Below, piece by piece: positions 1 through 15,729 of a DNA stretch of 64,000 nucleotides. The notes beneath the pieces were generated by a model. It was given only the letters and a program-made list of their open reading frames with translations. It had not been told where the DNA came from and made no database searches. Made by a program: the position numbers and the translations under genes. This DNA is from a phage. Where the stretch lies: the sequence record PZ386974.1; one strand, 5' to 3'. Position 1 is the first letter of the stretch. The number at the start of each line of letters is the position of its first letter.

Positions 1-390
1 TTCTTTTAGAAGAGCCGGTAATTGGGCCGCAATGCGAGGACCATAGAAAGTGTTGAAGTTCGCAGGCAAAGCATCTGATTTTGGTTTAGAAATAAATTTA
101 GCGACATTAGGATATGCTTTAAACGCTTCTTCTGCATCAGTACCACCAGAAATCATAAACTTCCAGAAGTCTTCGGCATATTCATAAGAGATGCGGTTAA
201 TACGTGGGTCGGTCATTTTGAATGATGATGGATTGTCAACAACTACTGTCATGGACCCGATTTCATTACAACGTCCAATACGAGAATTAGTTACGAATTC
301 GGGGTTTTCTAAAATTTCACGATTGACTGCTTTAAATGCGGTTTGAAAATCTGCGGCTTTGATATATTTCATTGTGTTATGTTTTCCCAT
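1..390 (-). CDS. hypothetical protein, N-terminal ~130 aa only; gene runs off the window start
   Basis: Open minus-strand frame from ATG at 390 (GAGGT SD 5 nt upstream) to position 1; not in ORF track because truncated. N-terminus MGKHNTMKYIKAADF... does not match my recollection of T4 gp42. Confidence 0.5.
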   Translation of the reverse strand, partial: MGKHNTMKYIKAADFQTAFKAVNREILENPEFVTNSRIGRCNEIGSMTVVVDNPSSFKMTDPRINRISYEYAEDFWKFMISGGTDAEEAFKAYPNVAKFISKPKSDALPANFNTFYGPRIAAQLPALLKE

Positions 391-432
391 GTTTACCTCA
401 ATACAATTTATTATATACTCAATTCGTAAAGC

Positions 433-672
433 TTATTTGAATTTCTTGGCAATGTTGATATAACGTAAAGCTTCAGAATCTATACTTCCAAGAACACTAT
501 GAAGGAATGCATCAGTGTAGTATTCCAATTGAACAGGTTCTTTAATCACTTTAGCCGCTTTGGTTTCAAACAGGCCCATAAGGGCCTTTTTAAGAATTTG
601 TTCGTTAGTGTTCAGTTTAATAGTCAAAATCTCTTCGTTAAGATTATAATTAAAAGTTTTTCTAGAAATCAT
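433..672 (-). CDS. hypothetical protein (79 aa)
   Basis: ORF tiling the minus-strand gene array; start overlaps stop of upstream gene (669/672). Confidence 0.45.
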   Translation of the reverse strand: MISRKTFNYNLNEEILTIKLNTNEQILKKALMGLFETKAAKVIKEPVQLEYYTDAFLHSVLGSIDSEALRYINIAKKFK

Positions 673-1838
673 TCCGGGTACCTCAAAGCGTCATCAGAGT
701 TAGTTATATCAATAATAGATATAGAGTTTTCTGCTAACCCGTTTTTAGATAATTGACGTTTATAATACCTTTCACAATATGTACACGTTGACCCACAGAT
801 TTCATTAGCACAATCAAAATCTGGATGTCTGAACCACCTTTTTTCTAAAAAGCCATCTAACAAAGAGGTTTCAATATTTACTGTATGTGAAAACTCAGTC
901 TCATTTTCAAGAGTGAAAATAGTCTCTAAAGGCTTCCACAGTTCTAACAAATTACCTTCAAACTTTTCAGAAGCGTATGCTTCAAGAACTTTCAAAATGT
1001 AGTCTGTGCTACCTGTACGTCCTGAAACTTTGAATTGAGTGATACCAATATCATTATAAAGTTTCAAATCTTGAGGACGAACAAAACGAGTTCTCAACCA
1101 ATTAAATGGGTCTGTATCACGAGCTTTAATACAGTGCTGCATTGGATATCCGTTTAAGGATTTAGCATCATCAGCTGTAACATCAGTACTATGGAAAATA
1201 TAGCAAGAGTCACGATAGCTACAATGTGTTGTATACCCTTTACCAGCATTAGAACAGAACTCGTTTACAAGAACTTCAAATATTATATTGTTCTTATTGC
1301 AAAACTCTGCTGCACGCTTCAGGAAAGAAACTGAACGGTTCTTATGAATTCCGCAACAGACCTTTTTGATGTTATATTGGTCATGCAAGTATTTGATTTG
1401 AGTTACAGCATCGACATGTAGAATTGTTGAAACTTCAATCTCAATATCTTTATTGACTTCACGAACAATTTCCATAACAACAGGGTTAGCGATAGTAATA
1501 CGCCATACGCCTATTGACCAAAGATACTGAACATAATCCTGAATAGCTTTCTTCTTCCACTCAACTAGTTCTCTTTTTGAACCAGGATTTATCGTGTTGA
1601 GTGTATAGTTAAAGCAAATACCTAATTCGTTACAACGTTTAACGTAATCTTCTAACATCTTTTTGTCAACGTCAGGAAGCCTAAAATCAGGTCTGGCTGC
1701 TACAAAAGCCATTTCTCTTGTAGAGCCGTATACTTCGTTTATCAAGCTATTAGGATAAGTTTTATTGAGCTCTACGATTTTATCAAGAAGAGCTAAATCA
1801 AAATTCGTTCCGATTTTAAAAGTATTCATTTTTTGCAT
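669..1838 (-). CDS. Cys-rich protein of unknown function (389 aa); candidate transferase or metal-binding enzyme of the sugar-nucleotide cassette
   Basis: Long ORF with many Cys including C-terminal C-x3-C-x2-C (CGSTCTYC); no family assignable by eye. Confidence 0.6.
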   Translation of the reverse strand: MQKMNTFKIGTNFDLALLDKIVELNKTYPNSLINEVYGSTREMAFVAARPDFRLPDVDKKMLEDYVKRCNELGICFNYTLNTINPGSKRELVEWKKKAIQDYVQYLWSIGVWRITIANPVVMEIVREVNKDIEIEVSTILHVDAVTQIKYLHDQYNIKKVCCGIHKNRSVSFLKRAAEFCNKNNIIFEVLVNEFCSNAGKGYTTHCSYRDSCYIFHSTDVTADDAKSLNGYPMQHCIKARDTDPFNWLRTRFVRPQDLKLYNDIGITQFKVSGRTGSTDYILKVLEAYASEKFEGNLLELWKPLETIFTLENETEFSHTVNIETSLLDGFLEKRWFRHPDFDCANEICGSTCTYCERYYKRQLSKNGLAENSISIIDITNSDDALRYPE

Positions 1839-1884
1839 CTCGCGTTAATTGATGCGATGGTTTTTGCAGGTCTTACTTAAATTA

Positions 1885-2286
1885 TTATAGGTTCGGTTTA
1901 TATGATTTAAATGTTTCGAATTCGCCTTTATTCATAAGAGCTTTGAATTCGTCGGGACGCATAGCTTTGTCGTCGATAATCCAATCATATACTGGTTTAT
2001 GTGTTAGCAAATTATGGTACTTCAAACCAATGTTTTCCAAGTTCTGAATCAGACTTGGGAGAATGTCAATTGCTATACGACCAGGACCTACTGACTTCAT
2101 ACCGCGAGCAGTGTAAAGCGTTATGGTATGCCCTGCATCATACAGGGCATTAATGGCAGACACCATTTCGACGTCTGGTTTGAAGTTCACGTAATCACGA
2201 TTGTTATTCCACTCTGTTATACAATCATCGACATCAAAATAAAGATTAAGCATGTTTTCTACACGGTGCATTAGATTCGTTCCCAT
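1885..2286 (-). CDS. putative HAD-like phosphatase (133 aa)
   Basis: N-terminal hhhDxDD motif (LYFDVDDCIT) and C-terminal DD (WIIDDK) resemble HAD motifs I and IV; short, so tentative. Confidence 0.5.
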   Translation of the reverse strand: MGTNLMHRVENMLNLYFDVDDCITEWNNNRDYVNFKPDVEMVSAINALYDAGHTITLYTARGMKSVGPGRIAIDILPSLIQNLENIGLKYHNLLTHKPVYDWIIDDKAMRPDEFKALMNKGEFETFKSYKPNL

Positions 2287-3956
2287 TGATGAGTGATATC
2301 GCCACCGATTGGACGGTAAGAAACACCAGTTTCTTTATCAGTTAGTACCCATTTACCAGGATTTTTTGTAATCAGAGTAGCCGTTACAGGTTCTGCTACG
2401 TCATAACTAATAGAGCCGTCTTGAAGTACACGGCCCATGTTACGTAATTGCTTAGTCAGAAGTTCCATACCTTTATAATATGCGGCTACCGCTTTAAGTG
2501 GATTATTCTTGAAATAACCACCTAATGCAATCCAGATAATTGCTACGGCCAAATGATGATACTCGTTAAACGAACTCAGCTTTCCATATTTGTAAATTAA
2601 TGGATTGATGTTAATAGTCACATTACAAGTTGTTTCGTCAATAGTAAACTGTCCCCAGGTCGGATTAGCGTTGAATTCATCATAACCTGAAACAGCATAA
2701 AGCACTTTAGCTTCATCATACAATTTTGGCCCGTAAATCTTGGTTTCACCAAAATATCCACGAGGGTCGATAAACTTGACTTCGCCGTTATCAGTAATCA
2801 TAGTATTACTGAAGTTCGGGTCACCATGAATAACAGAGTACTGTCCCTGAGAACGGTTATGATAACGAATAAGGTGTTCTAAAGCTTGTTTCAGCATTGG
2901 CTTCAGACGCCCAATCTTAGTGTAGTTCACATGGGTGATTTTACCAAATGAATCAATCAATGGTTGAATGCTTTCACAACGATCAATAACTTTCGTATAG
3001 AATTCTTTAGTGAAATCACGACGAACAGTTTCAGGACTTACAAAATAAGTGTCTGTGCTGAATTTCAGTGCATCTAAAATTGCATCAACAATTTGTGGAC
3101 GAGCAAGACTTGATTTGGATTTAATATATTCAAATGCCGGCTTACCTTTAATGCGTTCCATTTCAAAGTTATTTTCATTAACAGAAACTAACTGAGGAAC
3201 TGAATCTGATTTCACTTTAAGATACCATGAAATCTCATCTTTCTGAAGAGCTCGACCCTGTTCGGTTAATGCGAATTTAGTTACAGTTTCTTCACCAATT
3301 TCAACTGCATTAAAACTACGATTAAGTTCACGAACTTCATGAGCTTTTTCAAGTTTAGGCATATCACCTAAATCAATTAGATTCATAAGCTCTGATTTAT
3401 TGAATGCGCTGCCGTAAAGGAATTCTACGAAATCACGTCCTTTGCAGTATTCATGAATTTCCTCATCGGTAGAACCCATATAGAATTCCCAGTCTTTGAA
3501 CTGATAAATTCCTACAACATTACCACCTGTTGAACCTACGTTAGTGATATTTTCACCGTCGAAATTATATCGACATTCGTCACCCTTAACATAGATTGCG
3601 TTAACATTCCAAGACCATGAACCAAAATCGGGAATAATATCACACCAGTTAACAATTACATTATGGCCGTCTAAATCTTTGTGTAATTTAGCAAGAGCAT
3701 AAGCAGAACCATACGCTTCATCAACTGTGCGAATAGTCACATTGAACCCTTCTTGCTCACAATAAGCTCGAACAGTTTCAGCAAATTTTGAATGAACTAC
3801 TACAATAATTTCATCTGCGCCAAGGTCAGAATAAATTGTATACAAATTGCTCAGAATAGTGTCTTGTTTATAGTTAACAAGCACCTTAGGAATATGATGC
3901 GTTATTGGATATAAACGAGTCGCCAGTCCAGCACCAAGAATAACAGCTTTTTTCAT
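2271..3956 (-). CDS. bifunctional sugar-1-phosphate nucleotidyltransferase / kinase-like protein (561 aa)
   Basis: N-terminus MKKAVILGAGLATRLYPIT matches the G-x-G-T-R-L-Y-P-[IL]-T signature of RmlA/GlmU-type NTases; C-terminal HGDPNFSNTM...FIDPRG resembles APH/choline-kinase catalytic motifs. Confidence 0.7.
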   Translation of the reverse strand: MKKAVILGAGLATRLYPITHHIPKVLVNYKQDTILSNLYTIYSDLGADEIIVVVHSKFAETVRAYCEQEGFNVTIRTVDEAYGSAYALAKLHKDLDGHNVIVNWCDIIPDFGSWSWNVNAIYVKGDECRYNFDGENITNVGSTGGNVVGIYQFKDWEFYMGSTDEEIHEYCKGRDFVEFLYGSAFNKSELMNLIDLGDMPKLEKAHEVRELNRSFNAVEIGEETVTKFALTEQGRALQKDEISWYLKVKSDSVPQLVSVNENNFEMERIKGKPAFEYIKSKSSLARPQIVDAILDALKFSTDTYFVSPETVRRDFTKEFYTKVIDRCESIQPLIDSFGKITHVNYTKIGRLKPMLKQALEHLIRYHNRSQGQYSVIHGDPNFSNTMITDNGEVKFIDPRGYFGETKIYGPKLYDEAKVLYAVSGYDEFNANPTWGQFTIDETTCNVTININPLIYKYGKLSSFNEYHHLAVAIIWIALGGYFKNNPLKAVAAYYKGMELLTKQLRNMGRVLQDGSISYDVAEPVTATLITKNPGKWVLTDKETGVSYRPIGGDITHQWERI

Positions 3957-4137
3957 GTTGAAGTCCTCATTGGTAAGTAGGAGTATTGTACACTATTCTA
4001 GTTAAAGCATTCATACTTTGCTTGTAGTCCAATCATAATCCATCCAATTACAAGTGTTGGAATCATTACTGGAGCCGTTAAGCTCCAGTAGATAGTCATG
4101 ACAAGCATCAATAGTAAAAGTCCTATTGTTATTGCTT

Positions 4138-4773
4138 TCATTGTTCGCCTCGTAACATGGCACCTAGTGCACCGCCTGGATGGAACTTAAGGAAGTCATT
4201 AGAGGTAAATCCACGCTCAGACGAAAGGTTGATAGCGAACGTATCGATAAGCGCTAACAACAATGTAGTGGACATAGTCGGAGCTAAAGAGTTCTCGTCA
4301 ACTTCTACCGCGATACCGGTACAGAACGTATAATCAAAAAGAGCTTCGTATTCTTGTGGAATGTCAGGGTTACAATGTAACAGAATCTGTTTAACCTGAG
4401 GACGAATCATACGAAGATGTTTAGCAACACCTATCATTTCTTCAGTCTTACCAGAACGACTGATGTGAACTAATACATCATTAGGTGCAATAAATCCTGC
4501 GTCACCATGAGAATAATGCCCGGTGTTCAAGTACATACTCGGGATACCGAGTGAAGCAAATGTCTCAGAAGCTTTAGTTGCAATATTAGCATTCTTACCA
4601 ACACCTGTAATAATTACTCGGCTTTCATAATTACTAAGTCCTGGGCGTCGAAGAGTTTCTAGAATAGCATTATAACGAGCAGGGTTTTGACTAATTACTT
4701 TGGCCATAGCGGCCAAAGAAGAAGCTTGTTTTATGATTGCGTCAATAGCGATAGTAATAGGAGTAGTTTTCAT
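4138..4773 (-). CDS. SIS-domain sugar-phosphate isomerase (arabinose-5-P isomerase / GmhA-like), 211 aa
   Basis: GVGKNANIATKASETF and VHISRSGKTEEM are classic SIS-domain motifs; no CBS domains. Confidence 0.7.
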   Translation of the reverse strand: MKTTPITIAIDAIIKQASSLAAMAKVISQNPARYNAILETLRRPGLSNYESRVIITGVGKNANIATKASETFASLGIPSMYLNTGHYSHGDAGFIAPNDVLVHISRSGKTEEMIGVAKHLRMIRPQVKQILLHCNPDIPQEYEALFDYTFCTGIAVEVDENSLAPTMSTTLLLALIDTFAINLSSERGFTSNDFLKFHPGGALGAMLRGEQ

Positions 4774-4813
4774 ATTTCTCTCATTTAATTAGTTTACCGT
4801 CCATGTCATTATA

Positions 4814-7525
4814 TCAAAAATCGAACATATCGAACAGAGATGCTTTCTTCTCGTAATCGAGTTTCGCTGCTGATGTGAATCCTTCAAGTGGTTTAATAAA
4901 TGTCTTCTCAAGGAGAACAGTGTAGTCCATCCAATGAAGTACGTCGTCTTTAATTAAATCTGTGATTTCAGTACCAGAAGGCCATGCGATACATTTATCA
5001 CCGAATGGGTTTCCTTCACGTAAAGGCAGAACATATACTTTTTCACCTTCTACAACTTGCGGCGCATCGATATTACCTTTGATAGCCCGGTTATACGTCA
5101 GAATTCCACGAATATGGAACGGGCATTTGGGACCAGGGAATCCACCGACGTCATATTTAGCAATGTTATTCGCAGAAGATACCGACGCGATGCTAATATA
5201 ATTCAATTGACGGAATTCTTTTTCAAACTCTTTAAAATATTCTTGTAATGATTCTTCACCTTCTTGAAGCATACGACGAATACATTCCTTAAGAGCTTTC
5301 TGTACTGCTTTAGGGGTCGAAGATTTCTGAGTCTCTAGACCCATGATTTTGAGTTTAGGCTCAGCGTATCTGGTTCCTTCCATATCCCACACGTTTAATG
5401 CATAACGTTTCTTACCAGTCCAAAATCCGCCAATACCTTTAGAACCAAGCGGAGGCCCAGCGATAGCTTCTCGGTCCATGAACATTAAGTGTTGTTTATT
5501 GTTCATGTATTCACACATTTCACGGAAACCTCTATCAATAGCAGGTTCCATACGTTCACGTGCAAACTTATCTAAGAAGTCTACCCAATGGTTGGTATCA
5601 CGGAATTTAGATTCACCAACCTTATCGATAATTTTATCAGCAGATACGTAAATAGAGTCTGTATCACCATAAAGAACGAAAGCTTCACCTTCTGTACCAC
5701 AAACTTCATTCAGATATTCATTAACTTTACGTTCAATCCACTGTAAAGCCATTTGCCCGAATGTTGTGATTGCAGTAGCATTACGCAAATCATAATAACG
5801 GAACCAAACGTTGCCAAGTGCACCATAAAGTGAGTTGATGAGCAATTTACGGTTAATTTGTGCAGTCATACCTGCAACTTCAGTACGTTGAGCTCTAAAC
5901 AACATTTCGTTAAGAGATTTAGCAGACAACTTTTTAATCTTTTCTTTAATCTCATCACTGAAGTCGAAACGATAATCAACATCTAATGGTTCGTCAACAG
6001 AAAGATTAGGATTATGCAATGCCTCTTTAATTATTTCACCATTGCGTTGAGCCGCAAGCATATAACCTTTGTGTTCTTTACGTTGATTAAAGACTTTAGT
6101 GATTTCAGTTGGAACAACACCGTCACGGTCTTTATAATACATCATGCCGTTAGGAGAACAACTGTACACATCAGAAGGACGTTCAGCAACAGCGTTAATA
6201 TAATCATGCAATGGAGCTACTTTAAACGTTCCTGCTATTGTTTCTGGGCTAATATTCACTTGGCGAATAATACTTGGATACAGAGATGTGAGGTCGAAGC
6301 TCATCACATATTTGTATCGATTTGGAATAGGTTCCTTAACAAAAGCGCCAGGATAAGGTTGAACCGGATGAGAACGACCTTGTGGAATCACCTTGTTCTG
6401 CTCTTTAAGGCTATTAAAAATAATAGCATCCCATGTTTTAATTGGGCTAAACACAGATTGAATCTGTATCTTAGCATAATAACCCATGTCCAAGCTCAAG
6501 TTAATGAACTGACGTTTACCATCAATTTGCAATACACGATACACGTCGATAATGTTATAAGAAATATATCGTTGGTGATTGCTTTCACGAAGCTTAGAAA
6601 TAGGGCCGTCATATTTCAGTTTACCAACGTTCAATTCAAATTCTGAAATGTAATCCAGAGAATACGACGGTTGATTGGTAAAAGAGAATTTTTTGTAAAG
6701 GTCAATGTAATCAAGAACAGAGATACCGAACAATGTAATGATTTCACGAGAACCATACATGTTTTCGATAACTTTAACACGAGTTTTACGATGTGGTGAT
6801 AAACGTTTCGCAGTAGATTCGCCAAAAATATTCTTGATTCGGTTATACACATATGGAATATCAAATGACTCAACGTTCCATCCAGTCAAAATGACAGGAG
6901 TTTTCTGTTGCCAGAAGTTGAGATATTCCATCAACAATTCTTTTTCATTATCGAACGGCATATAAATGATTTTATCGATAATTTCGGATGGAACTTCATC
7001 ACCACCTTGTTCTTGAAGCTTAGCCGCAATTTCGATAGACCATTCTTCCACATTACCGTATGGAGAATTCAAAAGGTCAAATACGTAGAACCTGTCGTCA
7101 ATTGAGTCATAATGGGTGATAGCATCAATCGGATGTTTTGCTTGTGACGGCTCAGGGAACCCGTCCGGAGATGTTACTTCGATGTCGAAGTTAGCCACAC
7201 GAATTTTTGTATGGTCGTATTTGATTTCATAGTTATAAGTGTCAGACAAATACGCCAATTTGAAATCGTCCATGCCAAGTGCTTCAAGTCCGATATCTTC
7301 CATGCGTTTAATCCATTGGGAGGCATCACGCATATTAGCGAACAACTTACGAGTACACGGCTTACCGTAGATATCGAAATATTTCGTAGCCTGACTTTCT
7401 GGACAATGAGCAAACAGTGATGGTTTATATTCTACTTCACGAGTACGTTCACGGCCATTAGAATCGATGTAACGTTCAAAAATTGAATCACCAATCTGTT
7501 CAACCGTTAAGTAAAATTCTTTCAT
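4814..7525 (-). CDS. 43: DNA polymerase (family B), T4 gp43
   Basis: 903 aa; N-terminus MKEFY...ERYID..G.ERTREVEY and YGDTDS motif; co-linear with T4 gp43. Confidence 0.95.
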   Translation of the reverse strand: MKEFYLTVEQIGDSIFERYIDSNGRERTREVEYKPSLFAHCPESQATKYFDIYGKPCTRKLFANMRDASQWIKRMEDIGLEALGMDDFKLAYLSDTYNYEIKYDHTKIRVANFDIEVTSPDGFPEPSQAKHPIDAITHYDSIDDRFYVFDLLNSPYGNVEEWSIEIAAKLQEQGGDEVPSEIIDKIIYMPFDNEKELLMEYLNFWQQKTPVILTGWNVESFDIPYVYNRIKNIFGESTAKRLSPHRKTRVKVIENMYGSREIITLFGISVLDYIDLYKKFSFTNQPSYSLDYISEFELNVGKLKYDGPISKLRESNHQRYISYNIIDVYRVLQIDGKRQFINLSLDMGYYAKIQIQSVFSPIKTWDAIIFNSLKEQNKVIPQGRSHPVQPYPGAFVKEPIPNRYKYVMSFDLTSLYPSIIRQVNISPETIAGTFKVAPLHDYINAVAERPSDVYSCSPNGMMYYKDRDGVVPTEITKVFNQRKEHKGYMLAAQRNGEIIKEALHNPNLSVDEPLDVDYRFDFSDEIKEKIKKLSAKSLNEMLFRAQRTEVAGMTAQINRKLLINSLYGALGNVWFRYYDLRNATAITTFGQMALQWIERKVNEYLNEVCGTEGEAFVLYGDTDSIYVSADKIIDKVGESKFRDTNHWVDFLDKFARERMEPAIDRGFREMCEYMNNKQHLMFMDREAIAGPPLGSKGIGGFWTGKKRYALNVWDMEGTRYAEPKLKIMGLETQKSSTPKAVQKALKECIRRMLQEGEESLQEYFKEFEKEFRQLNYISIASVSSANNIAKYDVGGFPGPKCPFHIRGILTYNRAIKGNIDAPQVVEGEKVYVLPLREGNPFGDKCIAWPSGTEITDLIKDDVLHWMDYTVLLEKTFIKPLEGFTSAAKLDYEKKASLFDMFDF

Positions 7526-7606
7526 TTAATTTCCTTTAGACGAGTTATTGTCTTTTGTTTGTTGATGAACTTATTATACTCCAAATGGGACCGAAGTCCC
7601 ATTGCT

Positions 7607-7984
7607 TTAATTACCAATTGTATATTTTGCTTTCAAAGTCCAGTCATCTTTCTGTTTAAAAGAGATAACACGGAAGTTATTAGTCAGGCCAAACAGATCT
7701 TCACGAGCAGAGTCTTCAATAACAATCAATCCCCAGTCTTCAAGCAACTGGGCAATCGAATCACGTCGTTGGTAGTCTTCACCATCAATATCAACTTGAC
7801 GCCCGTCCATACGCAACATTTCTTTAAAGTGGACGATGTAATATTTACCTTGCTTTTGGAGGATATGACAGGACTGATAAAGAACTTTATCCTTGTTATT
7901 AGCGATGCCCATACGGGTCAGAGTCTCTTTGACTTTAAGAAAATCTTCGGGGTTCTTCAATTTAATTTCAATCATTTTTACCAT
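7607..7984 (-). CDS. regA: translational repressor RegA
   Basis: 125 aa ORF between 62 and 43, conserved T4 position. Confidence 0.8.
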
Positions 7985-8541
7985 TCCAATGCTAATTTTT
8001 TAAATTGTTTTTGTTCTTTCACATTTTTTGTAACTTCTTTGAGAAACTCATCAGTGACCATGGCCTTCAGTTCTTTAAGGACTATTGGCAACTTGTTATT
8101 TTTTTCAAGGAGCCGCTTATACTCAGTAGCATCATTCATGTTGATTGTGTAACGTTTCATCAACAGTTTGATAACTAGTAACTCTGAAGTGTCTTCGACT
8201 AGTTTAGCCCATTTAGAGAATCGACGACCACGCGGAATTGCCGCCATCATATAGTTGAAGTGCGCTTCATCACTTAATTCAGAACCGACTAAGTTCATCA
8301 TGTAAACAGCTGGCATACATTCTGGAAACTGGGATAATGAGTTCTCAACCATAAATTTTGAGTAGTCAACCTGAGCAATTGACATAGGTTTCTTTTCATT
8401 AATAGCATTAATGATTTTAAAGAATTCATTCTCAGGTTTTTCTTTAAACATATCAGCACATTTTTGAATCGCATCAGCGTCATTAGACTTCCATGCAATT
8501 TGGTGCTCGTTAAGCCGGACGTCATCATCGAATAAGTTCAT
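7978..8541 (-). CDS. 62: clamp loader small subunit gp62
   Basis: 187 aa, directly downstream of gp44 with overlapping stop/start; T4 synteny. Confidence 0.85.
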
Positions 8542-10981: not shown

Positions 10982-12670
10982 TTATGAAACAGTCATTACA
11001 GTAAATCGTCCAACTTTGCTCATCCGAAGATGTTGTCCATAACGTTGAGGGTCATGGTCTCGATGAGAGATAATGAACACATTAGTATTTTGTAAACTTC
11101 CAAGAATGGTATCTATAGCCTTAACAGCCTCAGAATCGACAGCCCCGTCAAAAACCTCATCAAGAATCAGAGTGTTGATTTTAACACCAGAGACCTTTTC
11201 AGCAATATCTCTCCATGTAAACAACAATGCGATATCGATACGTGCCTTTTCACCTTGACTAAATGAAGCATAACTAAAATCTTCACGACCACGTGATTTT
11301 ATAGATTCATTGAATTCTTCGTCAATAGAAAACACGTAATCAGCTTCCATGATTTTAAGATAATGGTTAATCTGCTTGTTGAACAGAGGCACATATTTTT
11401 TAATGATAGCACCTTTAATACCAGAATCTTTTAACATATCTGTGATAATACCACGATGGTATTTTTCAAGAACGATATCCGATTTTGTTTTAATGATTTT
11501 ATCAAGTTCTTTTTGAAGCAAAGCTATCTCATCGGCATGGTCGATAAATTCTGCTGAGGCTTGCTCTATTGCAGCTTTAACTTTCTTAGCTTTATCAATA
11601 GTGGCAATCATTGCTTGTTTCTTGGTATGAATATCAGATGCAAGGTCCTGTTTAGTCTTAACATTAGCTCTATATTCGTCCACTAGGACACTCAGATTAT
11701 CTCTGTGACATGTAAGTTGCTCGAATGAGTGATTACATTCGTGAAGCTTATCGGTAATCTTAGAGACAATAGGATCACCCTGGTGCAACTGTGATGCACA
11801 AGTAGGACATGTGCCACCATCATGATACATCTTAATAACTTTGTTGTATGAGTCGATTTTAGATTTAATCAAGAATGCTTCTTGTCCTATCTTGTTGAAT
11901 GCCTCAGTAGGGTCTTCATCAAGAACGATATTAAGTAGTCGCTCATTAGCTTCTTCGATTTCTGCTTTTAATGAACGAGCTTCTTTGGCTAGGTCGTCAT
12001 ACATATTCTGTAGACGCGCTACATTATCACCAGATAATTTCTTTTGACGTTCGATATTCTCGTTATAAATCTTAATTTGTTGGATAACACCATCTTTCTT
12101 GGCATCGAGAACTTGTCCCTGGGAATTAAGTTCTCGAACTTGAGACTTATTGATTTTATCCATTTCGGCGAGTGTGCCGACTTCTAAAAGGTCTTCGACA
12201 AGTTTTCTACGAGCAGGGGTGCTAAGAGCCATGAAAGGGGTATACCCTGCCGTCCCAAGCACAACGATCTGTTTAAAAGACGCGTATGACATTCCGATGC
12301 TACGTTCAAATTCTTCTTGGAAGTCACGACTGCTGGCAGATTCATCGAGACGAACACCGTCAACGGAGATTTCGAAAATATTGGGCTTTTGGCCACGTCT
12401 AATGAAGTATTTTTTATCATCGAATTCCATCCAAAGCTCAACTAAGAGCTCTTTCTTGTTCGTGCTATTAATGATTTGTCCTTTCTTAACATCACGAAAT
12501 GGTTTACCGAAAAGTCCGAAAGTAATGGCTTCTAACATCGTAGATTTACCACCGCCATTTTTACCAGTGATTAATGTCTTTTGGACTTTATCTAATTGGA
12601 TATCAATAGGATTCCCACCTACCGACATGATGTTTTGATAACGAACACGATTTAATTTAAATGATTTCAT
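10982..12670 (-). CDS. 46: recombination endonuclease subunit gp46 (SbcC/Rad50-like ATPase)
   Basis: 562 aa; Walker A GKNGGGKST near N-terminus, coiled-coil middle, C-terminal ATPase motifs. Confidence 0.9.
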   Translation of the reverse strand: MKSFKLNRVRYQNIMSVGGNPIDIQLDKVQKTLITGKNGGGKSTMLEAITFGLFGKPFRDVKKGQIINSTNKKELLVELWMEFDDKKYFIRRGQKPNIFEISVDGVRLDESASSRDFQEEFERSIGMSYASFKQIVVLGTAGYTPFMALSTPARRKLVEDLLEVGTLAEMDKINKSQVRELNSQGQVLDAKKDGVIQQIKIYNENIERQKKLSGDNVARLQNMYDDLAKEARSLKAEIEEANERLLNIVLDEDPTEAFNKIGQEAFLIKSKIDSYNKVIKMYHDGGTCPTCASQLHQGDPIVSKITDKLHECNHSFEQLTCHRDNLSVLVDEYRANVKTKQDLASDIHTKKQAMIATIDKAKKVKAAIEQASAEFIDHADEIALLQKELDKIIKTKSDIVLEKYHRGIITDMLKDSGIKGAIIKKYVPLFNKQINHYLKIMEADYVFSIDEEFNESIKSRGREDFSYASFSQGEKARIDIALLFTWRDIAEKVSGVKINTLILDEVFDGAVDSEAVKAIDTILGSLQNTNVFIISHRDHDPQRYGQHLRMSKVGRFTVMTVS

Positions 12671-12921: not shown

Positions 12922-13150
12922 TACACGCTTCAGCCATTTTAAGAATAGAGCCAGGAGTATCGTTGTCCATTATATTAAAGCTAAATTCAATAGCCCAGTC
13001 GGTGCAGACATGAACTGCTTTAACTTCATTGCCTTCAACGCGTAATGGCTCAATCCAATACTTGATAGTGTTCTCGAATCCATCATCATCTTTAACGTCA
13101 ATTTCAACTTCAAGGTTGAGTCCAGCATTGTTAAATTCATCTAAAGTCAT
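12893..13150 (-). CDS. hypothetical acidic protein (85 aa)
   Basis: ORF between 47 and 46. Confidence 0.5.
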   Translation of the reverse strand: MTLDEFNNAGLNLEVEIDVKDDDGFENTIKYWIEPLRVEGNEVKAVHVCTDWAIEFSFNIMDNDTPGSILKMAEACIEDAYNDED

Positions 13151-14166
13151 TGTGTTGCCTCGATATAAAGTTCGTTGGAATATTTGACCAGCGCTTCTCT
13201 GTCTTCGTCTGAGATATCTGGAATCGCGTCAATATATTCTTTAATGATATCTTGAAGTGATTTAATCTCTATTTCCTGGTCGTCATCAGATTCAACACTG
13301 TTATCAACTTTAGAAACCATACGAAGAGAGTGAACTACTTTTTCAAGTTCAGATTCAAACTTAGTCAACTCTGAATCGATTTCTGATACTATAACACGTA
13401 CGGCTAGATTAGTATAATCAGAATAATTGATTTTGCCTTTAAACGGATAAGTGATTCGTCGATGCCATGTTGTTTCATTAGGAATAAATTCCATACGTTC
13501 AACATCAGTGTCAAATACCCAGAATCCTCGAGGGTCGTTCTCATCGCCTGCAGTAAGGGTCCATGGTGTCCCAATATATTTGACGTTAGCAGCTTCAGAG
13601 ATTGTGTGGAAGTGGCCGGACCAGACTTGTTTATAGGTCTTTAAGAAATCAGGTTCAAGCCCATGAGACTTCATTCCTTTATAGAAATAAAAGCCATTCA
13701 GTTCCCAGTGCCCAACACAATACGCTGCGGAAGAAGTCTTGATGTGCTCTAAGATTTCACCTGTATTTTCTTCACACATCCATGGAACGATATCAATCAG
13801 ACATCCGTCAAAATCTACAGTAGTTGGATGTTCATAAATAGTAAAGTTTTCAAATTGAGTTAACAATTCAGAAACAGTGTTAGGTGTTATTGTATTCTTA
13901 AACGCCATGTCATGGTTTCCTATCGTGACATGAACGTGAATGCCTGCTTTAGAAATCATATCAACGATTTCACGATTGAATTCCATTGTACGATGTGTTA
14001 TTGCTTTACGGACGTCAAACCAATCACCGTACTGAATCCAAGTTTTAATCCCGTGTTTCTTAGAGTATTCAATTGCTTGTCGAATACCATCACGTTGAAT
14101 ATCTTGAACCCATGGGTCGTCTTGTTTGACTCCGATATGGAAGTCGCCTAAGTGCAAAATTTTCAT
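13147..14166 (-). CDS. 47: recombination endonuclease subunit gp47 (Mre11/SbcD-like nuclease)
   Basis: MKILHLGDFHIG phosphoesterase motif I plus GNHD motif; 339 aa. Confidence 0.9.
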   Translation of the reverse strand: MKILHLGDFHIGVKQDDPWVQDIQRDGIRQAIEYSKKHGIKTWIQYGDWFDVRKAITHRTMEFNREIVDMISKAGIHVHVTIGNHDMAFKNTITPNTVSELLTQFENFTIYEHPTTVDFDGCLIDIVPWMCEENTGEILEHIKTSSAAYCVGHWELNGFYFYKGMKSHGLEPDFLKTYKQVWSGHFHTISEAANVKYIGTPWTLTAGDENDPRGFWVFDTDVERMEFIPNETTWHRRITYPFKGKINYSDYTNLAVRVIVSEIDSELTKFESELEKVVHSLRMVSKVDNSVESDDDQEIEIKSLQDIIKEYIDAIPDISDEDREALVKYSNELYIEATQ

Positions 14167-14954: not shown

Positions 14955-15164
14955 TTATCTCATTAAATTAAAATAAAAACGTCCATCCTCTTCAATACAG
15001 AACTCATACTCAACCGGAGTCCCGTTTATTGAAAATGACACGTCATGTGGGTTCAAAGGGTCGATGTCAAAATTAATTTTAAATTCACGACCCAACAGTT
15101 TTACCAAATAAGGGATTGCTTCGTCAAAAGGTTCTTCTAAGTAGTTAGAGATGTCAATTGTCAT
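14955..15164 (-). CDS. hypothetical protein (69 aa)
   Basis: Start moved to ATG at 15164, which overlaps the gp55 stop; ORF-track start 15248 would overlap gp55 by 95 nt. Confidence 0.45.
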
Positions 15165-15729
15165 CCTCATATAAAAAATCCAAACTAGGCGAATCGCTAA
15201 CAACTTCCTTCTTTTCAGCCCCAGGAGCTTTATAAGCGGATTCTTCATAATGCGTCATTTTATCGTAGATGTCTTGAATAAACGTTTCATCTACCAACGC
15301 TACCATATCATCGTCATGACTGTCATAGACATTATGAACGAAGTAACTATATTTCTTTGCAACTTCCTTACGTTCTTTTTTGATACGTTGGACAAAAGCA
15401 TTAAAACAAGCTCGAGTTATGTATGCATGTGGGTTATTGTACTTAGTTTCGTCGAAATTATGAAGTCCCTTAATAGAGGCTTCAATCCCATCTGCAATCA
15501 TCTCCTGCTTCCAAGACTGGGTATATCCTGAAAAGTTGAAACGTTTGGACAGGCCTTCGGCGATAAGCATAATTGCTAAACCGATGGTATCATTCTGACG
15601 AATAATTTTGTTTGGGTCTTTATTATTTAAGAGCTCCTTTTTCCACTCGATTATAGCGGCGAGAAGCTCTTTATTATTCACATAGTTATTTTTAGGTTTT
15701 TGTTCAGTCATAAGTACCTCTTGGCTCAA
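15154..15729 (-). CDS. 55: late-transcription sigma factor gp55
   Basis: 191 aa; YVNNKELL...[61 protein letters not shown] matches T4 gp55. Confidence 0.9.

Follow-up and report, generated by a model that had tools for sequence, protein, structure and literature searches.

The arabinose-activation genes of an RB69-like phage and a U32-family neighbor that may hydroxylate cytosine without oxygen

Which part of a DNA hypermodification system is encoded directly downstream of the gp43 DNA polymerase gene of an RB69-like phage, and is any of it new? We analyzed a 64,000-nucleotide stretch of phage DNA (record PZ386974.1; hereafter, the window), where the ORF list places four co-oriented genes at this position, as the initial annotation had reported; all lie on the minus strand (Table 1). 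The source genome is that of a Mosigvirus (RB69-like), with 98.8% identity to phage PhAPEC2. The gene block is 97.7 to 98.8% identical among the phage matches listed first, and in 153 phage records a single place covers ≥80% of it, which rules out a chance set of ORFs. Synteny of the cassette is common to RB69, HY126, and AlbertHofmann, a phage 97.9% identical that we used as an annotated comparison. We also confirmed that there is no alpha-gt between 47 and 55: only ORFs of ∼100 amino acids (aa) lie between a gp47-sized ORF (13147-14166) and a 191-aa ORF (15154-15729), gene names here being given by size and synteny.

Table 1. Features of the window at and around the cassette
Feature	Coordinates	Strand	Evidence
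gp43 DNA polymerase, 903 aa (landmark upstream gene)	4814-7525	-	ORF; DNA polymerase annotation in all matching phage records
SIS isomerase, 211 aa (RB69 gp55 counterpart)	4138-4773	-	PF01380, TIGR00393, phrog_5670, PDB matches
Hydrophobic 47-aa ORF between isomerase and bifunctional enzyme	3998-4141	-	ORF list
Bifunctional AfhE-type enzyme, 561 aa (RB69 ORF53_52c counterpart)	2271-3956	-	PF00483, NCBIfam, HY126 identity
AfhF-type HAD phosphatase, 133 aa (RB69 gp51 counterpart)	1885-2286	-	TIGR01689, phrog_1238, HY126 identity
U32-family protein, 389 aa (RB69 gp50 counterpart)	669-1838	-	PF01136, AlphaFold model, profile match to RlhA
79-aa ORF after U32 gene	433-672	-	phrog_8601
5-Hydroxy-dCMP synthase, N-terminal 130 aa, cut by window edge (RB69 gp48 counterpart)	1-390	-	97% identity to AlbertHofmann protein

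Two small co-directional ORFs were absent from the initial annotation; the start of each overlaps the stop of its upstream gene (isomerase or U32) by 4 nt. The 47-aa ORF had no match in Pfam or NCBIfam; it is annotated as a CDS at the same position in AlbertHofmann, HY126, and Serratia phage CHI14. The 79-aa ORF belongs to phrog_8601 (unknown function; E = 5.5e-50) and had no Pfam match. It takes the place where most related phages have a chorismate mutase gene; we rejected it as a chorismate mutase homologue (hhalign probability, 0.3%).

The first of the four genes is predicted to encode a single-domain (SIS-only) D-arabinose-5-phosphate isomerase, which converts ribulose-5-P to arabinose-5-P. 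Its product matched SIS (PF01380; E = 1e-9) in Pfam and, over the SIS half of the profiles only, KpsF/GutQ (TIGR00393; E = 9e-32) and KdsD (NF008141; E = 4e-30) in NCBIfam; neither collection detected CBS domains, in agreement with the earlier description. It also matched phrog_5670 (arabinose 5-phosphate isomerase; E = 3e-116) and the PDB sequences 3etn (E = 1e-24), 5uqi, and 2xhz, in alignment with which GVGK, HGD, SRSGKTEE, and HPGGALG are conserved.

The 561-aa protein is, by its domain matches, an RmlA/MurU-like sugar-1-P nucleotidyltransferase (N-terminal) fused to an APH/choline-kinase-like sugar kinase (C-terminal), the fusion that had been proposed. NTP_transferase (PF00483; E = 8.5e-10) covers residues 3 to 99, and residues 308 to 409 gave weak kinase-fold matches (Fructosamin_kin, EcKL, and RIO1; E = 2e-3 to 9e-3); in NCBIfam, the protein matches the MurU, RmlA, and GlmU families. 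It carries LGAGLATRLYPIT near its N terminus and HGDPNFSN followed by FIDPRG in its C-terminal half, and it is 97% identical to HY126 AfhE, for which both kinase and UDP-arabinose pyrophosphorylase activities have reportedly been demonstrated (PMC13326640 section 27). The small HAD-like phosphatase, likewise foreseen, is predicted to be an AfhF-type enzyme that converts arabinose-1,5-bisphosphate to arabinose-1-P: although without a Pfam match, it matched the HAD family TIGR01689 (capsule biosynthesis phosphatase; E = 3e-13, NCBIfam) and phrog_1238 (E = 1e-42), shows HAD motif I (FDVDDCIT) as well as WIIDD, and is 98% identical to HY126 AfhF. Its true start may be an internal Met at residue 6, as in the HY126 annotation. 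Domain matches of these RB69 ORFs were tabulated as early as 2006 (PMC1524935).

Very probably, these three genes constitute the published UDP-arabinofuranose pathway, known for RB69, HY126, Bas46/47, and DLP3 (PMC6024577; PMC13326640), in which the isomerase is followed by a kinase (arabinose-5-P to arabinose-1,5-bisphosphate), a phosphatase (to arabinose-1-P), and a uridylyltransferase (PMC13326640 section 27). Judging from near-identical proteins, the SIS enzyme would draw ribulose-5-P from the pentose phosphate pathway, the kinase domain would phosphorylate C1 of arabinose-5-P, the HAD phosphatase would take off the 5-phosphate, and the nucleotidyltransferase domain would yield UDP-arabinofuranose. 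The initial annotation had recognized the enzyme logic of the ADP-heptose pathway (GmhA, HldE, and GmhB) in the cassette and had drawn a route from ribulose-5-P via arabinose-5-P and arabinose-1-P to an NDP-arabinose feeding DNA hypermodification; the published step order is indeed the heptose-type order, and the route agrees with published work (PMC6024577; PMC13326640). Since this logic is that of published biochemistry, the cassette itself is not new.

The acceptor base proposed at the same time, giving arabinosyl-hydroxymethylcytosine, did not stand, because the acceptor is 5-hydroxycytosine. LC-MS and NMR have been done on DNA of RB69 and of Mosigvirus NP; the sugar is joined to C5 through an ether link, making the modified base arabinosyl-5-hydroxycytosine, and a 2018 assignment has been revised (PMC13326640; PMC13390438). 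It is very improbable, therefore, that the cassette supplies NDP-arabinose for hydroxymethylcytosine made by a T4-type dCMP hydroxymethylase, as was proposed for RB69 in that 2018 HPAEC/MALDI study (PMC6024577); many GenBank records still annotate the neighboring gene as dCMP hydroxymethylase, but NMR, LC-MS, and 18O2 labeling place the sugar in ether linkage on 5-hydroxycytosine, 5-hydroxy-dCMP synthase activity has been shown for RB69 gp48 and DLP3 gp80 (PMC13326640), and the same base was found in an independent Mosigvirus (PMC13390438), so that for RB69 and NP the idea is already refuted. The partial gene at the window edge also speaks against it: its product is 97% identical to the thymidylate-synthase-like 5-hydroxy-dCMP synthase of AlbertHofmann, which has the 5-hydroxy-type signature A80/E143/M165/N169 (E. 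coli ThyA numbering) common to the DLP3 and VR5 enzymes. Still less probable is an auxiliary metabolic module that alters host surface polysaccharide, with U32 as a collagenase-type peptidase. Best-match family names are capsule or lipopolysaccharide related (KpsF/KdsD-like isomerase, capsule biosynthesis phosphatase, and sugar nucleotidyltransferase), PHROGs assigns two genes to "moron, auxiliary metabolic gene," and U32 is named as a peptidase family; however, the cassette sits within a replication and nucleotide-metabolism region, where it adjoins genes for 5-hydroxy-dCMP synthase and a DNA glycosyltransferase, the arabinose is present on virion DNA (PMC13326640), a published chemistry that contradicts this reading, and the characterized U32 proteins considered here are tied to hydroxylation rather than proteolysis (PMC10990095).

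From work on other phages, the ThyA-like enzyme, which depends on flavin and O2, would make 5-hydroxycytosine at the level of dCMP, and the base would enter DNA as 5-hydroxy-dCTP; glycosyltransferases encoded outside the window would then attach the sugar to it in DNA. The view that the transferase could not be determined from sequence needs correction, as the transferases are known: a homologue of the gp46:47 transferase lies just beyond the left window edge, as seen in AlbertHofmann, and the second maps elsewhere in the genome (gp3 in RB69).

The U32 gene is where novelty may lie. Its product, previously described as a Cys-rich orphan, is indeed Cys-rich (49 viral homologues share ten invariant cysteines) but is no orphan, being a member of Peptidase_U32 (PF01136; E = 7e-11; 42 bits, cut-off 22.4) in Pfam. 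Its AlphaFold model (pLDDT 91.2) has a U32 protein, 5d88, as best PDB match; in profile comparison its best E. coli paralogue is RlhA (79.5% probability; E = 1.5e-5), and the only named NCBIfam matches among the viral homologues were UbiU (19 of 49) and TrhP (13 of 49). [quoted passage not shown] The phage protein is presumably an Fe-S protein: an invariant cysteine aligns with UbiU C176, a residue whose mutation eliminates the Fe-S cluster. Of the four canonical U32 cysteine-ligand positions, just two are occupied; if a cluster is bound, C206 and C236 would have to be the remaining ligands. No protein of the gene cluster is better conserved than U32: its median identity across genera is 85%, versus 71% for DNA polymerase.

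In 13 of 15 Straboviridae (T4-like) loci, U32 is followed by a gene for chorismate mutase, the enzyme that produces prephenate (PF01817; 38 to 50 bits in the nine scanned, cut-off 27); in Shewanella phage Thanatos-2 the pair occupies a different cluster position, and no chorismate mutase gene was found in the window. In 32 non-Straboviridae viral loci (uncultivated phages), U32 neighbors include homologues of the gp46:47 transferase (18 loci), AfhE (11), and the SIS isomerase (10), a KdsC-like HAD phosphatase (9), and DAHP synthase, alone or fused to a chorismate mutase domain (6). Among cellular proteins, the phage DAHP synthase-chorismate mutase is closest to those of Bacteroidota with mixed oxygen habits, so ecology gives no independent support for an "anaerobic" role. 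The O2-dependent 5-hydroxy-dCMP synthase never occurred in these 32 loci, which span ∼10 kb on each side of U32, so that another hydroxylase could be encoded farther away on those genomes; the sole nearby ThyA-family gene is a canonical thymidylate synthase. Contigs with the 5-hydroxy-dCMP-synthase type overlap U32 contigs only within Straboviridae. Conversely, the cluster lacks both U32 and chorismate mutase in three phages, belonging to three genera, of the obligate aerobe Acinetobacter. E. coli Dhakaviruses such as VR5 have the pathway without U32; at least one lineage that infects the same host can thus do without it.

We propose that phage U32 could be an oxygen-independent, prephenate-dependent cytosine C5-hydroxylase, for and against which we judge the case to be about evenly balanced. 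It would use prephenate as the oxygen donor for the cytosine 5-OH, probably acting on dCMP; prephenate would be host derived in the source phage, since this phage lacks the chorismate mutase gene that most relatives carry.

Either of two other roles for U32 appears unlikely to us, and to a similar degree. The protein might belong to the sugar branch, as a sugar or heterocycle reductase or in another pentose-shaping step before or after transfer: RB69 gp50 is labeled "sugar or heterocycle reductase" (PMC13326640 Table 1), the BASEL annotation reads "putative enzyme involved in UDP-arabinose biosynthesis," and U32 is close to AfhE and the SIS isomerase in the non-Straboviridae loci counted above. 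However, HY126 AfhE and AfhF cover the steps from arabinose-5-P to UDP-arabinose and the isomerase supplies arabinose-5-P (PMC13326640), so no step remains for a fourth sugar enzyme. In at least seven loci, U32 is paired with the transferase alone or with the transferase plus a Tmk-like kinase, AfhE and SIS genes being absent, and the sugar genes persist in Acinetobacter phages and Dhakaviruses that lack U32. Linkage to chorismate mutase speaks for prephenate chemistry instead, and no U32 protein has a known sugar substrate. DLP3, too, has arabinosylated DNA without U32 (PMC13326640). We infer that U32 is not part of sugar activation; nothing ties it to that step. Alternatively, U32 might, like RlhA and TrhP, hydroxylate RNA (host rRNA or tRNA, or phage tRNA), tuning translation during infection, with its position in the cluster incidental. 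Both known nucleic-acid substrates of U32 proteins are RNA (PMC5727448; PMC6599085), RlhA is the best E. coli match, and prephenate from the phage chorismate mutase would suit an RNA role equally. Yet the long C-terminal regions of RlhA (653 aa) and TrhP (453 aa) are absent from the viral clade, with no counterpart in the phage protein outside the last ∼15 residues (C352/C355 align with RlhA C611/C614, by MAFFT only); the genes that accompany U32 in 47 loci are those of DNA modification and deoxynucleotide metabolism (transferase, Tmk-like kinase, dUTPase, dCMP deaminase, and DnaE); and U32 and the ThyA-like hydroxylase have complementary distributions.

Overall, the likely best explanation of the locus is the sugar-activation half of the arabinosyl-5-hydroxycytosine cluster, together with U32 read as an O2-independent hydroxylase. 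If that reading of U32 is true, there would be a second, anaerobic route to sugar-bearing 5-hydroxycytosine beside the ThyA-like enzyme, and a phage of a facultative anaerobe would keep a working route under anoxic conditions.

The four genes that the initial annotation placed between the gene for DNA polymerase and the left edge of the window are real, as are their coordinates: all four appear in the ORF list, phage PhAPEC2 matches the block at 400-4900 with 98.8% identity, and 153 phage records, nearly all Mosigvirus (RB69-like), cover at least 80% of that block in one place. Absent from that annotation were two small ORFs and a gene truncated at the left edge. Junctions between the genes of the block are overlaps of 4 to 16 nt or gaps of 40 to 46 nt, and no terminator-like site lies between them on the minus strand. 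Over positions 1-8000, promoter-like sites (26 versus 27.5 expected) and terminator-like sites (6 versus 5.0 expected) occur at chance level. One σ70-like site at 1884-1911 on the minus strand (TTTAAA, 16 nt, TATAAT; 10 of 12 matches) lies 46 nt ahead of the start of the fourth gene, U32, inside the last part of the phosphatase gene; because such sites are overall no more frequent than chance predicts, it is only a pointer to possible separate U32 expression.

Genes at the left end of the window, in the order of transcription
Feature	Coordinates	Strand	Source
gp43 DNA polymerase	4814-7525	-	ORF list
211-aa SIS protein (isomerase)	4138-4773	-	ORF list
47-aa hydrophobic ORF	3998-4141	-	ORF list
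561-aa AfhE-type protein	2271-3956	-	ORF list
133-aa AfhF-type protein	1885-2286	-	ORF list
389-aa U32 protein	669-1838	-	ORF list
79-aa ORF	433-672	-	ORF list
ThyA-like enzyme, first 130 codons	1-390	-	ORF list

The strongly hydrophobic 47-aa ORF between the isomerase and AfhE-type genes looks conserved, judging by annotated position and length: AlbertHofmann, HY126, and Serratia phage CHI14 each have an annotated 47-aa coding sequence there. A membrane peptide within a cytoplasmic sugar pathway is unexplained.

By predicted activity, the 211-aa protein is a SIS-only arabinose-5-phosphate isomerase, of a form like that of Bacteroides fragilis 3etn. It matches PF01380 (E 1e-9) and, over the SIS half only, the KpsF/GutQ and KdsD profiles (E 1e-30 to 1e-32); its PDB matches are 3etn, 5uqi, and 2xhz. 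All of the KpsF/GutQ/KdsD active-site motifs (GxGK, HGD, SxSGxTxE, and HPGGxLG) are present, as GVGK, HGD, SRSGKTEE, and HPGGALG, and are conserved in the alignments to 3etn and 5uqi. It has no C-terminal tandem CBS domains, so the full KpsF/GutQ/KdsD architecture is absent: the match to TIGR00393 covers profile positions 2-153 of 268 and scores 110.7 bits (cut-off, 203.7). Structural similarity has also led to the prediction that the phage SIS protein interconverts ribulose-5-P and arabinose-5-P (PMC13326640). A second, shorter SIS-like ORF (E 1e-13 to 1e-25) lies just upstream of the full isomerase gene in seven Straboviridae loci (L018-L020, L023, L024, L026, and L031, at about 5960-7100), and a 166-aa ORF of similar short length, gp047 (L010:8440-8940), is the sole SIS match found in the Escherichia coli Dhakavirus VR5.

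The N-terminal part of the 561-aa protein is identified by its motifs as an RmlA/MurU-type nucleotidyltransferase: PF00483 matches residues 3-99 (39.1 bits; cut-off, 21.2), and the G-x-G-x-R ... P-x-T signature occurs as LGAGLATRLYPIT at residues 7-19. Its C-terminal half carries HGDPNFSN and FIDPRG, which resemble the kinase loop H-x-D-x-x-x-x-N and the downstream metal-binding Asp, and structural matches to 3ham and choline kinase have been reported (PMC13326640, Table 1). The 133-aa protein has HAD motif I (FDVDDCIT) and a C-terminal acidic WIIDD, and it matches the capsule biosynthesis phosphatase family TIGR01689 at E 3e-13 (49.8 bits, below the curated cut-off of 162). Of the families proposed in the initial annotation, SIS and NTP_transferase were recovered by Pfam and HAD through TIGR01689 and motifs, with no Pfam match; the kinase half gave weak Pfam matches (Fructosamin_kin, EcKL, and RIO1; E 2e-3 to 9e-3), all below cut-offs. 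The AfhE-type and AfhF-type proteins are orthologues of those of phage HY126 (97% identity over 562 aa and 98% over 128 aa, respectively), whose genes lie in the same order between the isomerase and U32 genes; we assigned these names to the HY126 genes from the description in PMC13326640. According to that description, HY126 AfhE is an arabinose-5-P kinase and UDP-arabinose pyrophosphorylase, and AfhF is a Mg-dependent phosphatase (He et al. 2026, as cited in PMC13326640).

The three-gene sugar cassette has been described before. For RB69 ORF048c, 050c, 053c, and 055c, the same Pfam matches were listed by Nolan et al. (2006; PMC1524935), and arabinose was detected on RB69 DNA by Thomas et al. 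(2018), who suggested that ORF055c and ORF53_52c are genes for UDP-arabinose (PMC6024577). The initial annotation took the acceptor to be hydroxymethylcytosine; the published base is instead arabinosylated 5-hydroxycytosine, and the ThyA-like gp48 makes 5-hydroxy-dCMP with flavin and O2 (Lee et al. 2026; PMC13326640). Mono- and di-arabinosyl cytidines are likewise found in a Mosigvirus from the Durham collection (PMC13390438). In ThyA-like homologues, A80, E143, M165, and N169 replace the W, L, Q, and D of E. coli ThyA, and by these residues the neighbouring "dCMP hydroxymethylase" is a 5-hydroxy-dCMP synthase. Judging from AlbertHofmann and HY126, immediately beyond the left edge of the window are a gene for a Tmk-like kinase and one for the first transferase (the homologue of RB69 gp46:47, which adds arabinose to 5-hydroxycytosine). 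The closest system is the arabinosyl-5-hydroxycytosine cluster of RB69, HY126, Bas46/47, and DLP3 (Thomas 2018, Mahler 2025, He 2026, Lee 2026): gene order is the same (isomerase, AfhE-type, AfhF-type, U32, then ThyA-like), proteins are 97-100% identical to those of Mosigvirus members, and the sugar genes show no material difference. Although correct, the finding of the initial annotation was thus already known.

That annotation had also likened the cassette to the bacterial ADP-heptose pathway (GmhA, HldE, and GmhB), an analogy that fits the published order of isomerase, kinase, phosphatase, and nucleotidyltransferase. Both routes run from a ketose-phosphate isomerase through an anomeric kinase that yields a bisphosphate, and then a distal phosphatase, to a nucleotidyltransferase, with a pentose as substrate in the phage and a heptose in the pathway; the isomerase and phosphatase steps draw on the same superfamilies in both, GmhA being a SIS and GmhB a HAD protein. 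HldE comprises a ribokinase-like kinase followed by a cytidylyltransferase-like adenylyltransferase, whereas in the phage enzyme an RmlA/MurU-like transferase precedes an APH-like kinase, and neither HldE nor ribokinase families occur among its 6 Pfam matches or the best 25 of its 27 NCBIfam matches. On these domain assignments, the 561-aa enzyme is judged non-homologous to HldE, and the cassette is heptose-like in its working, not a member of that pathway. Fkp-type fusions of pyrophosphorylase and kinase share the transferase-then-kinase order, and AmgK-MurU couples an anomeric MurNAc kinase with a uridylyltransferase, much as the AfhE-type enzyme couples an anomeric sugar kinase with a small sugar-1-P uridylyltransferase. 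The phage enzyme differs from both in substrate, and its kinase acts on an already phosphorylated sugar, which calls for a dedicated phosphatase. The NCBIfam matches of the 561-aa protein include MurU families, and MurU is the top Foldseek match reported in PMC13326640. Glucosylation of hydroxymethylcytosine in T4 (gp42 and the α- and β-glucosyltransferases) follows the same strategy and shares the genomic neighbourhood, with a modified dCMP produced by a ThyA-like enzyme and sugar added to the DNA once it has been replicated. T4, however, uses host UDP-glucose and needs no sugar-activation genes, its base is hydroxymethylcytosine, and it lacks a U32 gene.

The residual value of the finding lies in this fourth gene. 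No role for it has been tested in the accessible literature on the arabinosyl-5-hydroxycytosine cluster, which does not mention the chorismate mutase gene of other genera. RB69 gp50, its counterpart, appears only in Table 1 of PMC13326640, labelled "sugar or heterocycle reductase"; the discussion there cites the RlhA and TrhP pyrimidine hydroxylation pathways and does not note that gp50 belongs to their family. The gene is also unmentioned in Thomas 2018 (PMC6024577) and in the paper on Shewanella phage Thanatos, and we found no link of U32, prephenate, or chorismate mutase to phage DNA modification in the accessible full-text literature. We consider it a real possibility, a little short of evenly balanced, that the U32 protein is the founding member of a viral clade of cytosine C5-hydroxylases that depend on prephenate, need no O2, and act on deoxynucleotides or DNA; it would be a backup to the ThyA-like enzyme in T4-like phages of Enterobacterales and Shewanella, and the sole hydroxylase feeding DNA glycosylation in many uncultivated phages. 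This putative function is specific, testable, and not found in the accessible literature, and comparative evidence supports it.

Far from being the orphan of the initial annotation, the 389-aa protein belongs to the U32 family both by sequence (PF01136, Peptidase_U32; 42.2 bits against a cut-off of 22.4) and by fold: its AlphaFold model (pLDDT 91.2, pTM 0.90) has the U32 protein 5d88 as best PDB match (E 3e-7). A sequence search against PDB chains gave no match. Among E. coli paralogues, profile comparison favoured RlhA (79.5% probability, E 1.5e-5, 204 columns) over TrhP (13%) and UbiU (5%). RlhA is the 5-hydroxycytidine synthase of 23S rRNA (ho5C2501), TrhP makes ho5U34 in tRNA, and UbiU/UbiV act in anaerobic ubiquinone synthesis. 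The only named NCBIfam families in the U32 clade are UbiU (19 of 49) and "prephenate-dependent tRNA uridine(34) hydroxylase TrhP" (13 of 49). A search of 5.8 billion proteins returned Straboviridae orthologues at 76-88% identity and a large tier of ~360-aa proteins at 47-58%. The phage protein shares the Pfam family of RlhA, TrhP, and UbiUV at ~18-19% identity, and the chemistry required, C5 hydroxylation of a pyrimidine, would be that of RlhA and TrhP; it differs in lacking their RNA-targeting C-terminal domains, in belonging to a viral clade, and in its presumed substrate, a deoxynucleotide or DNA.

An alignment of 49 homologues revealed 10 invariant cysteines: C161, C180, C195, C206, C212, C236, and C343-X4-C348-X3-C352-X2-C355. 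When E. coli UbiU, UbiV, RlhA, and TrhP were aligned with the phage protein, C212 fell on UbiU C176, RlhA C176, and TrhP C177; mutation of UbiU C176 abolishes both Fe-S cluster and function (PMC10990095). Relative to the canonical U32 [4Fe-4S] motif CX6CX15-16CX3-4C (UbiU C169/C176/C193/C232), phage C195 is one column off the first ligand, and the third and fourth ligand columns contain no cysteine in phage U32, so the nearby invariant C206 and C236 would have to serve. The pattern thus departs from that of RlhA, TrhP, and UbiU both in its spacing (C195-X10-C206-X5-C212-X23-C236) and in the extra invariant C-terminal CX4CX3CX2C. This apparently non-canonical motif is a weak point of the hydroxylase proposal. 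In a MAFFT alignment (A1 columns 724-727), C352 and C355 lie on RlhA C611 and C614, and RlhA also has C572 and C580 upstream; a C-terminal metal site shared by the viral clade and RlhA is only a possibility, and we do not rely on this match because the profile alignment ends at residue 288.

A possible source of prephenate lies beside the gene in relatives of the window. Of 15 Straboviridae loci collected via the U32 alignment and searched for chorismate mutase domains, 13 have a match in a small ORF (79-137 aa, stop to stop) immediately 3' of U32. Against the type II Pfam family (cut-off, 27 bits), nine scanned ORFs scored 38-50 bits; CHI14 gp039 (L062:6158-6502), a "hypothetical protein" in its GenBank record, also passed, as did Thanatos-2 TH2_069 (L065:14561-14818) at 32.8 bits, so that 11 of 11 scanned were above cut-off. 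The other ORFs are at about 11130-11900 in loci L018-L029 and L031. In Shewanella phage Thanatos-2, U32 and the chorismate mutase ORF are again neighbours but occupy another position in the cluster, between the kinase and RecA, arguing that the pair travels as a unit. Stand-alone chorismate mutase ORFs have a deletion of ~10 residues in mid-domain compared with DAHP-synthase-fused versions; as we read the CHI14 gp039/TH2_069 alignment, the region with E. coli D48/R51/E52 is missing. The product of chorismate mutase is prephenate. Prephenate was shown to be the oxygen donor for UbiU/V and proposed to be so for all U32 proteins (PMC10990095). The putative link of phage U32 to prephenate, shared with RlhA, TrhP, and UbiUV, and to O2 independence is thus indirect, through this adjacency in Straboviridae and Thanatos-2 and through fusions in four metagenomic loci. 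The window itself has no chorismate mutase gene, so host prephenate would have to be used. In its place is the 79-aa ORF (phrog_8601), which overlaps the U32 stop codon by 4 nt; profile comparison shows no relation to chorismate mutase, ruling out a diverged copy, and the ORF is also unrelated to a 248-aa protein 3' of U32 in a large metagenomic phage. Besides Mosigvirus, four other Straboviridae loci have this 79-aa ORF (41-54% identity), and there it separates U32 from the chorismate mutase gene.

Median identity between RB69-like proteins and those of 14 loci from other Straboviridae genera is 85% for U32 (range, 83-89), compared with 80% for the ThyA-like enzyme, 72% for the isomerase, 71% for DNA polymerase, 68% for AfhF, 66% for both AfhE and the transferase, and 60% for the Tmk-like kinase. 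U32 is found in 222 cultured-phage records, always at 80% identity or more; among the matches listed, host genera are Escherichia, Klebsiella, Shigella, Serratia, Proteus, Yersinia, Enterobacter, Providencia, Edwardsiella, Pectobacterium, Kosakonia, and Shewanella. AfhE is in 377 such records, 57 of them Acinetobacter phages. The three Acinetobacter phages inspected, from three genera (DLP3, Acj61, and Mokit), have the isomerase, AfhE, AfhF, ThyA-like, transferase, and kinase genes and lack U32, as does E. coli Dhakavirus VR5; U32 is thus an accessory gene. A SegB-like homing endonuclease gene (CHI14 gp041, L062:4352-4990) separates the phosphatase and U32 genes in CHI14, and a Tmk-like kinase gene does so in five Klebsiella-/Proteus-type loci (L017, L021, L022, L028, and L029), indicating that the junction upstream of U32 is recombination-prone.

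Beyond Straboviridae, U32 proteins 40-56% identical are encoded in 32 loci on uncultivated viral contigs, many of which encode a DnaE-type polymerase. Upstream of U32 are homologues of the gp46:47 transferase (18 of 32 loci), AfhE (11), SIS isomerase (10), a KdsC-like HAD phosphatase with DCDGVxTDG ... GDSxSD (9), a Tmk-like kinase (about 8), and DAHP synthase (6, of which 4 are fused to a chorismate mutase domain; PF00793 E 3e-36 and PF01817 E 8e-18). Genes for dUTPase and dCMP deaminase recur nearby, and several loci have only kinase, transferase, and U32, with no sugar-activation genes; L015 is an example of this minimal module. Just one has a ThyA-family gene within 10 kb of U32, and its residues (W80, L143, Q165, D169, and N177) mark it as a canonical thymidylate synthase. 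We rejected a recurrent neighbour family as a hidden ThyA relative in these loci, all hhalign probabilities being below 1%. A scan of the viral collection with the 5-hydroxy-dCMP-synthase alignment found 43 contigs, which overlap with U32 contigs only among Straboviridae. Around homologous transferase and sugar genes, the U32 and ThyA-like candidate hydroxylases therefore complement each other in distribution, as analogous enzymes would be expected to do. Incomplete sampling of metagenomic phage genomes is a weak point of the proposal, and Dhakaviruses without U32 on the same host count against it. Host ecology lends it no support: an anaerobic host cannot be read from the phage DAHP synthase/chorismate mutase, because its closest cellular relatives, Bacteroidota bifunctional enzymes (~45% identity), are of mixed oxygen habits.

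The bifunctional genes next to U32 are at L043:7290-8354, L042:8399-9430, L047:8323-9384, and L044:3-968; loci L012 and L030 have a DAHP-synthase-family protein with no mutase domain, which could instead be a KDO-8-P synthase. On a 466-kb JGI contig of a huge phage (L002, 246-9939; also L003), U32 is accompanied by genes for a radical SAM/SPASM protein, Tmk-like kinase, UDG, DnaE, dCMP deaminase, a 402-aa protein with a weak GT-B-like match (QTMAN_N, E 5e-4), and a ~250-aa protein with a weak epimerase match. These neighbours are not homologues of the RB69-type transferase or the ThyA-like enzyme, the sole, weak match being between the Tmk-like kinases (E 9e-4); the set may represent a different 5-hydroxypyrimidine modification system.

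In the sugar route, the SIS enzyme is predicted to convert ribulose-5-P to arabinose-5-P; the AfhE kinase domain then forms arabinose-1,5-bisphosphate, AfhF yields arabinose-1-P, and the AfhE transferase domain produces UDP-arabinofuranose, activities reported for the near-identical HY126 proteins. The sugar is finally transferred to 5-hydroxycytosine in DNA. We infer that the U32 protein uses an Fe-S cluster and prephenate to hydroxylate cytosine C5 without O2; in some uncultivated phages, their own chorismate mutase or DAHP-synthase fusion would supply the oxygen donor. Association with Tmk-like kinases and deoxynucleotide genes suggests that U32 acts on dCMP, DNA being another possible substrate. 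In RB69-like phages, U32 would complement the O2-dependent gp48. TrhP/TrhO and UbiUV/UbiIHF each pair an O2-independent with an O2-dependent enzyme for one product, and a U32 protein backing up the ThyA-like 5-hydroxy-dCMP synthase would parallel them.

The cassette accounts for the synthesis, by RB69-like phages, of a sugar donor not produced by E. coli. Arabinosylation shields their DNA from restriction and CRISPR, and the cassette matters for phage therapy and for the choice of enzymes that cut such DNA, as already published. If the proposal for the fourth gene is true, the U32 family would gain its first DNA-directed substrate and first viral members, and a small soluble enzyme with a simple nucleotide substrate would be available for an in vitro assay, which is still missing in the field of prephenate hydroxylation (PMC10990095). 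An auxiliary metabolic function of defined purpose could then be assigned to the chorismate mutase genes, "hypothetical" in the CHI14 record, and cytosine modification would be explained in gut phages where O2, needed by the known 5-hydroxy-dCMP synthase, is absent.
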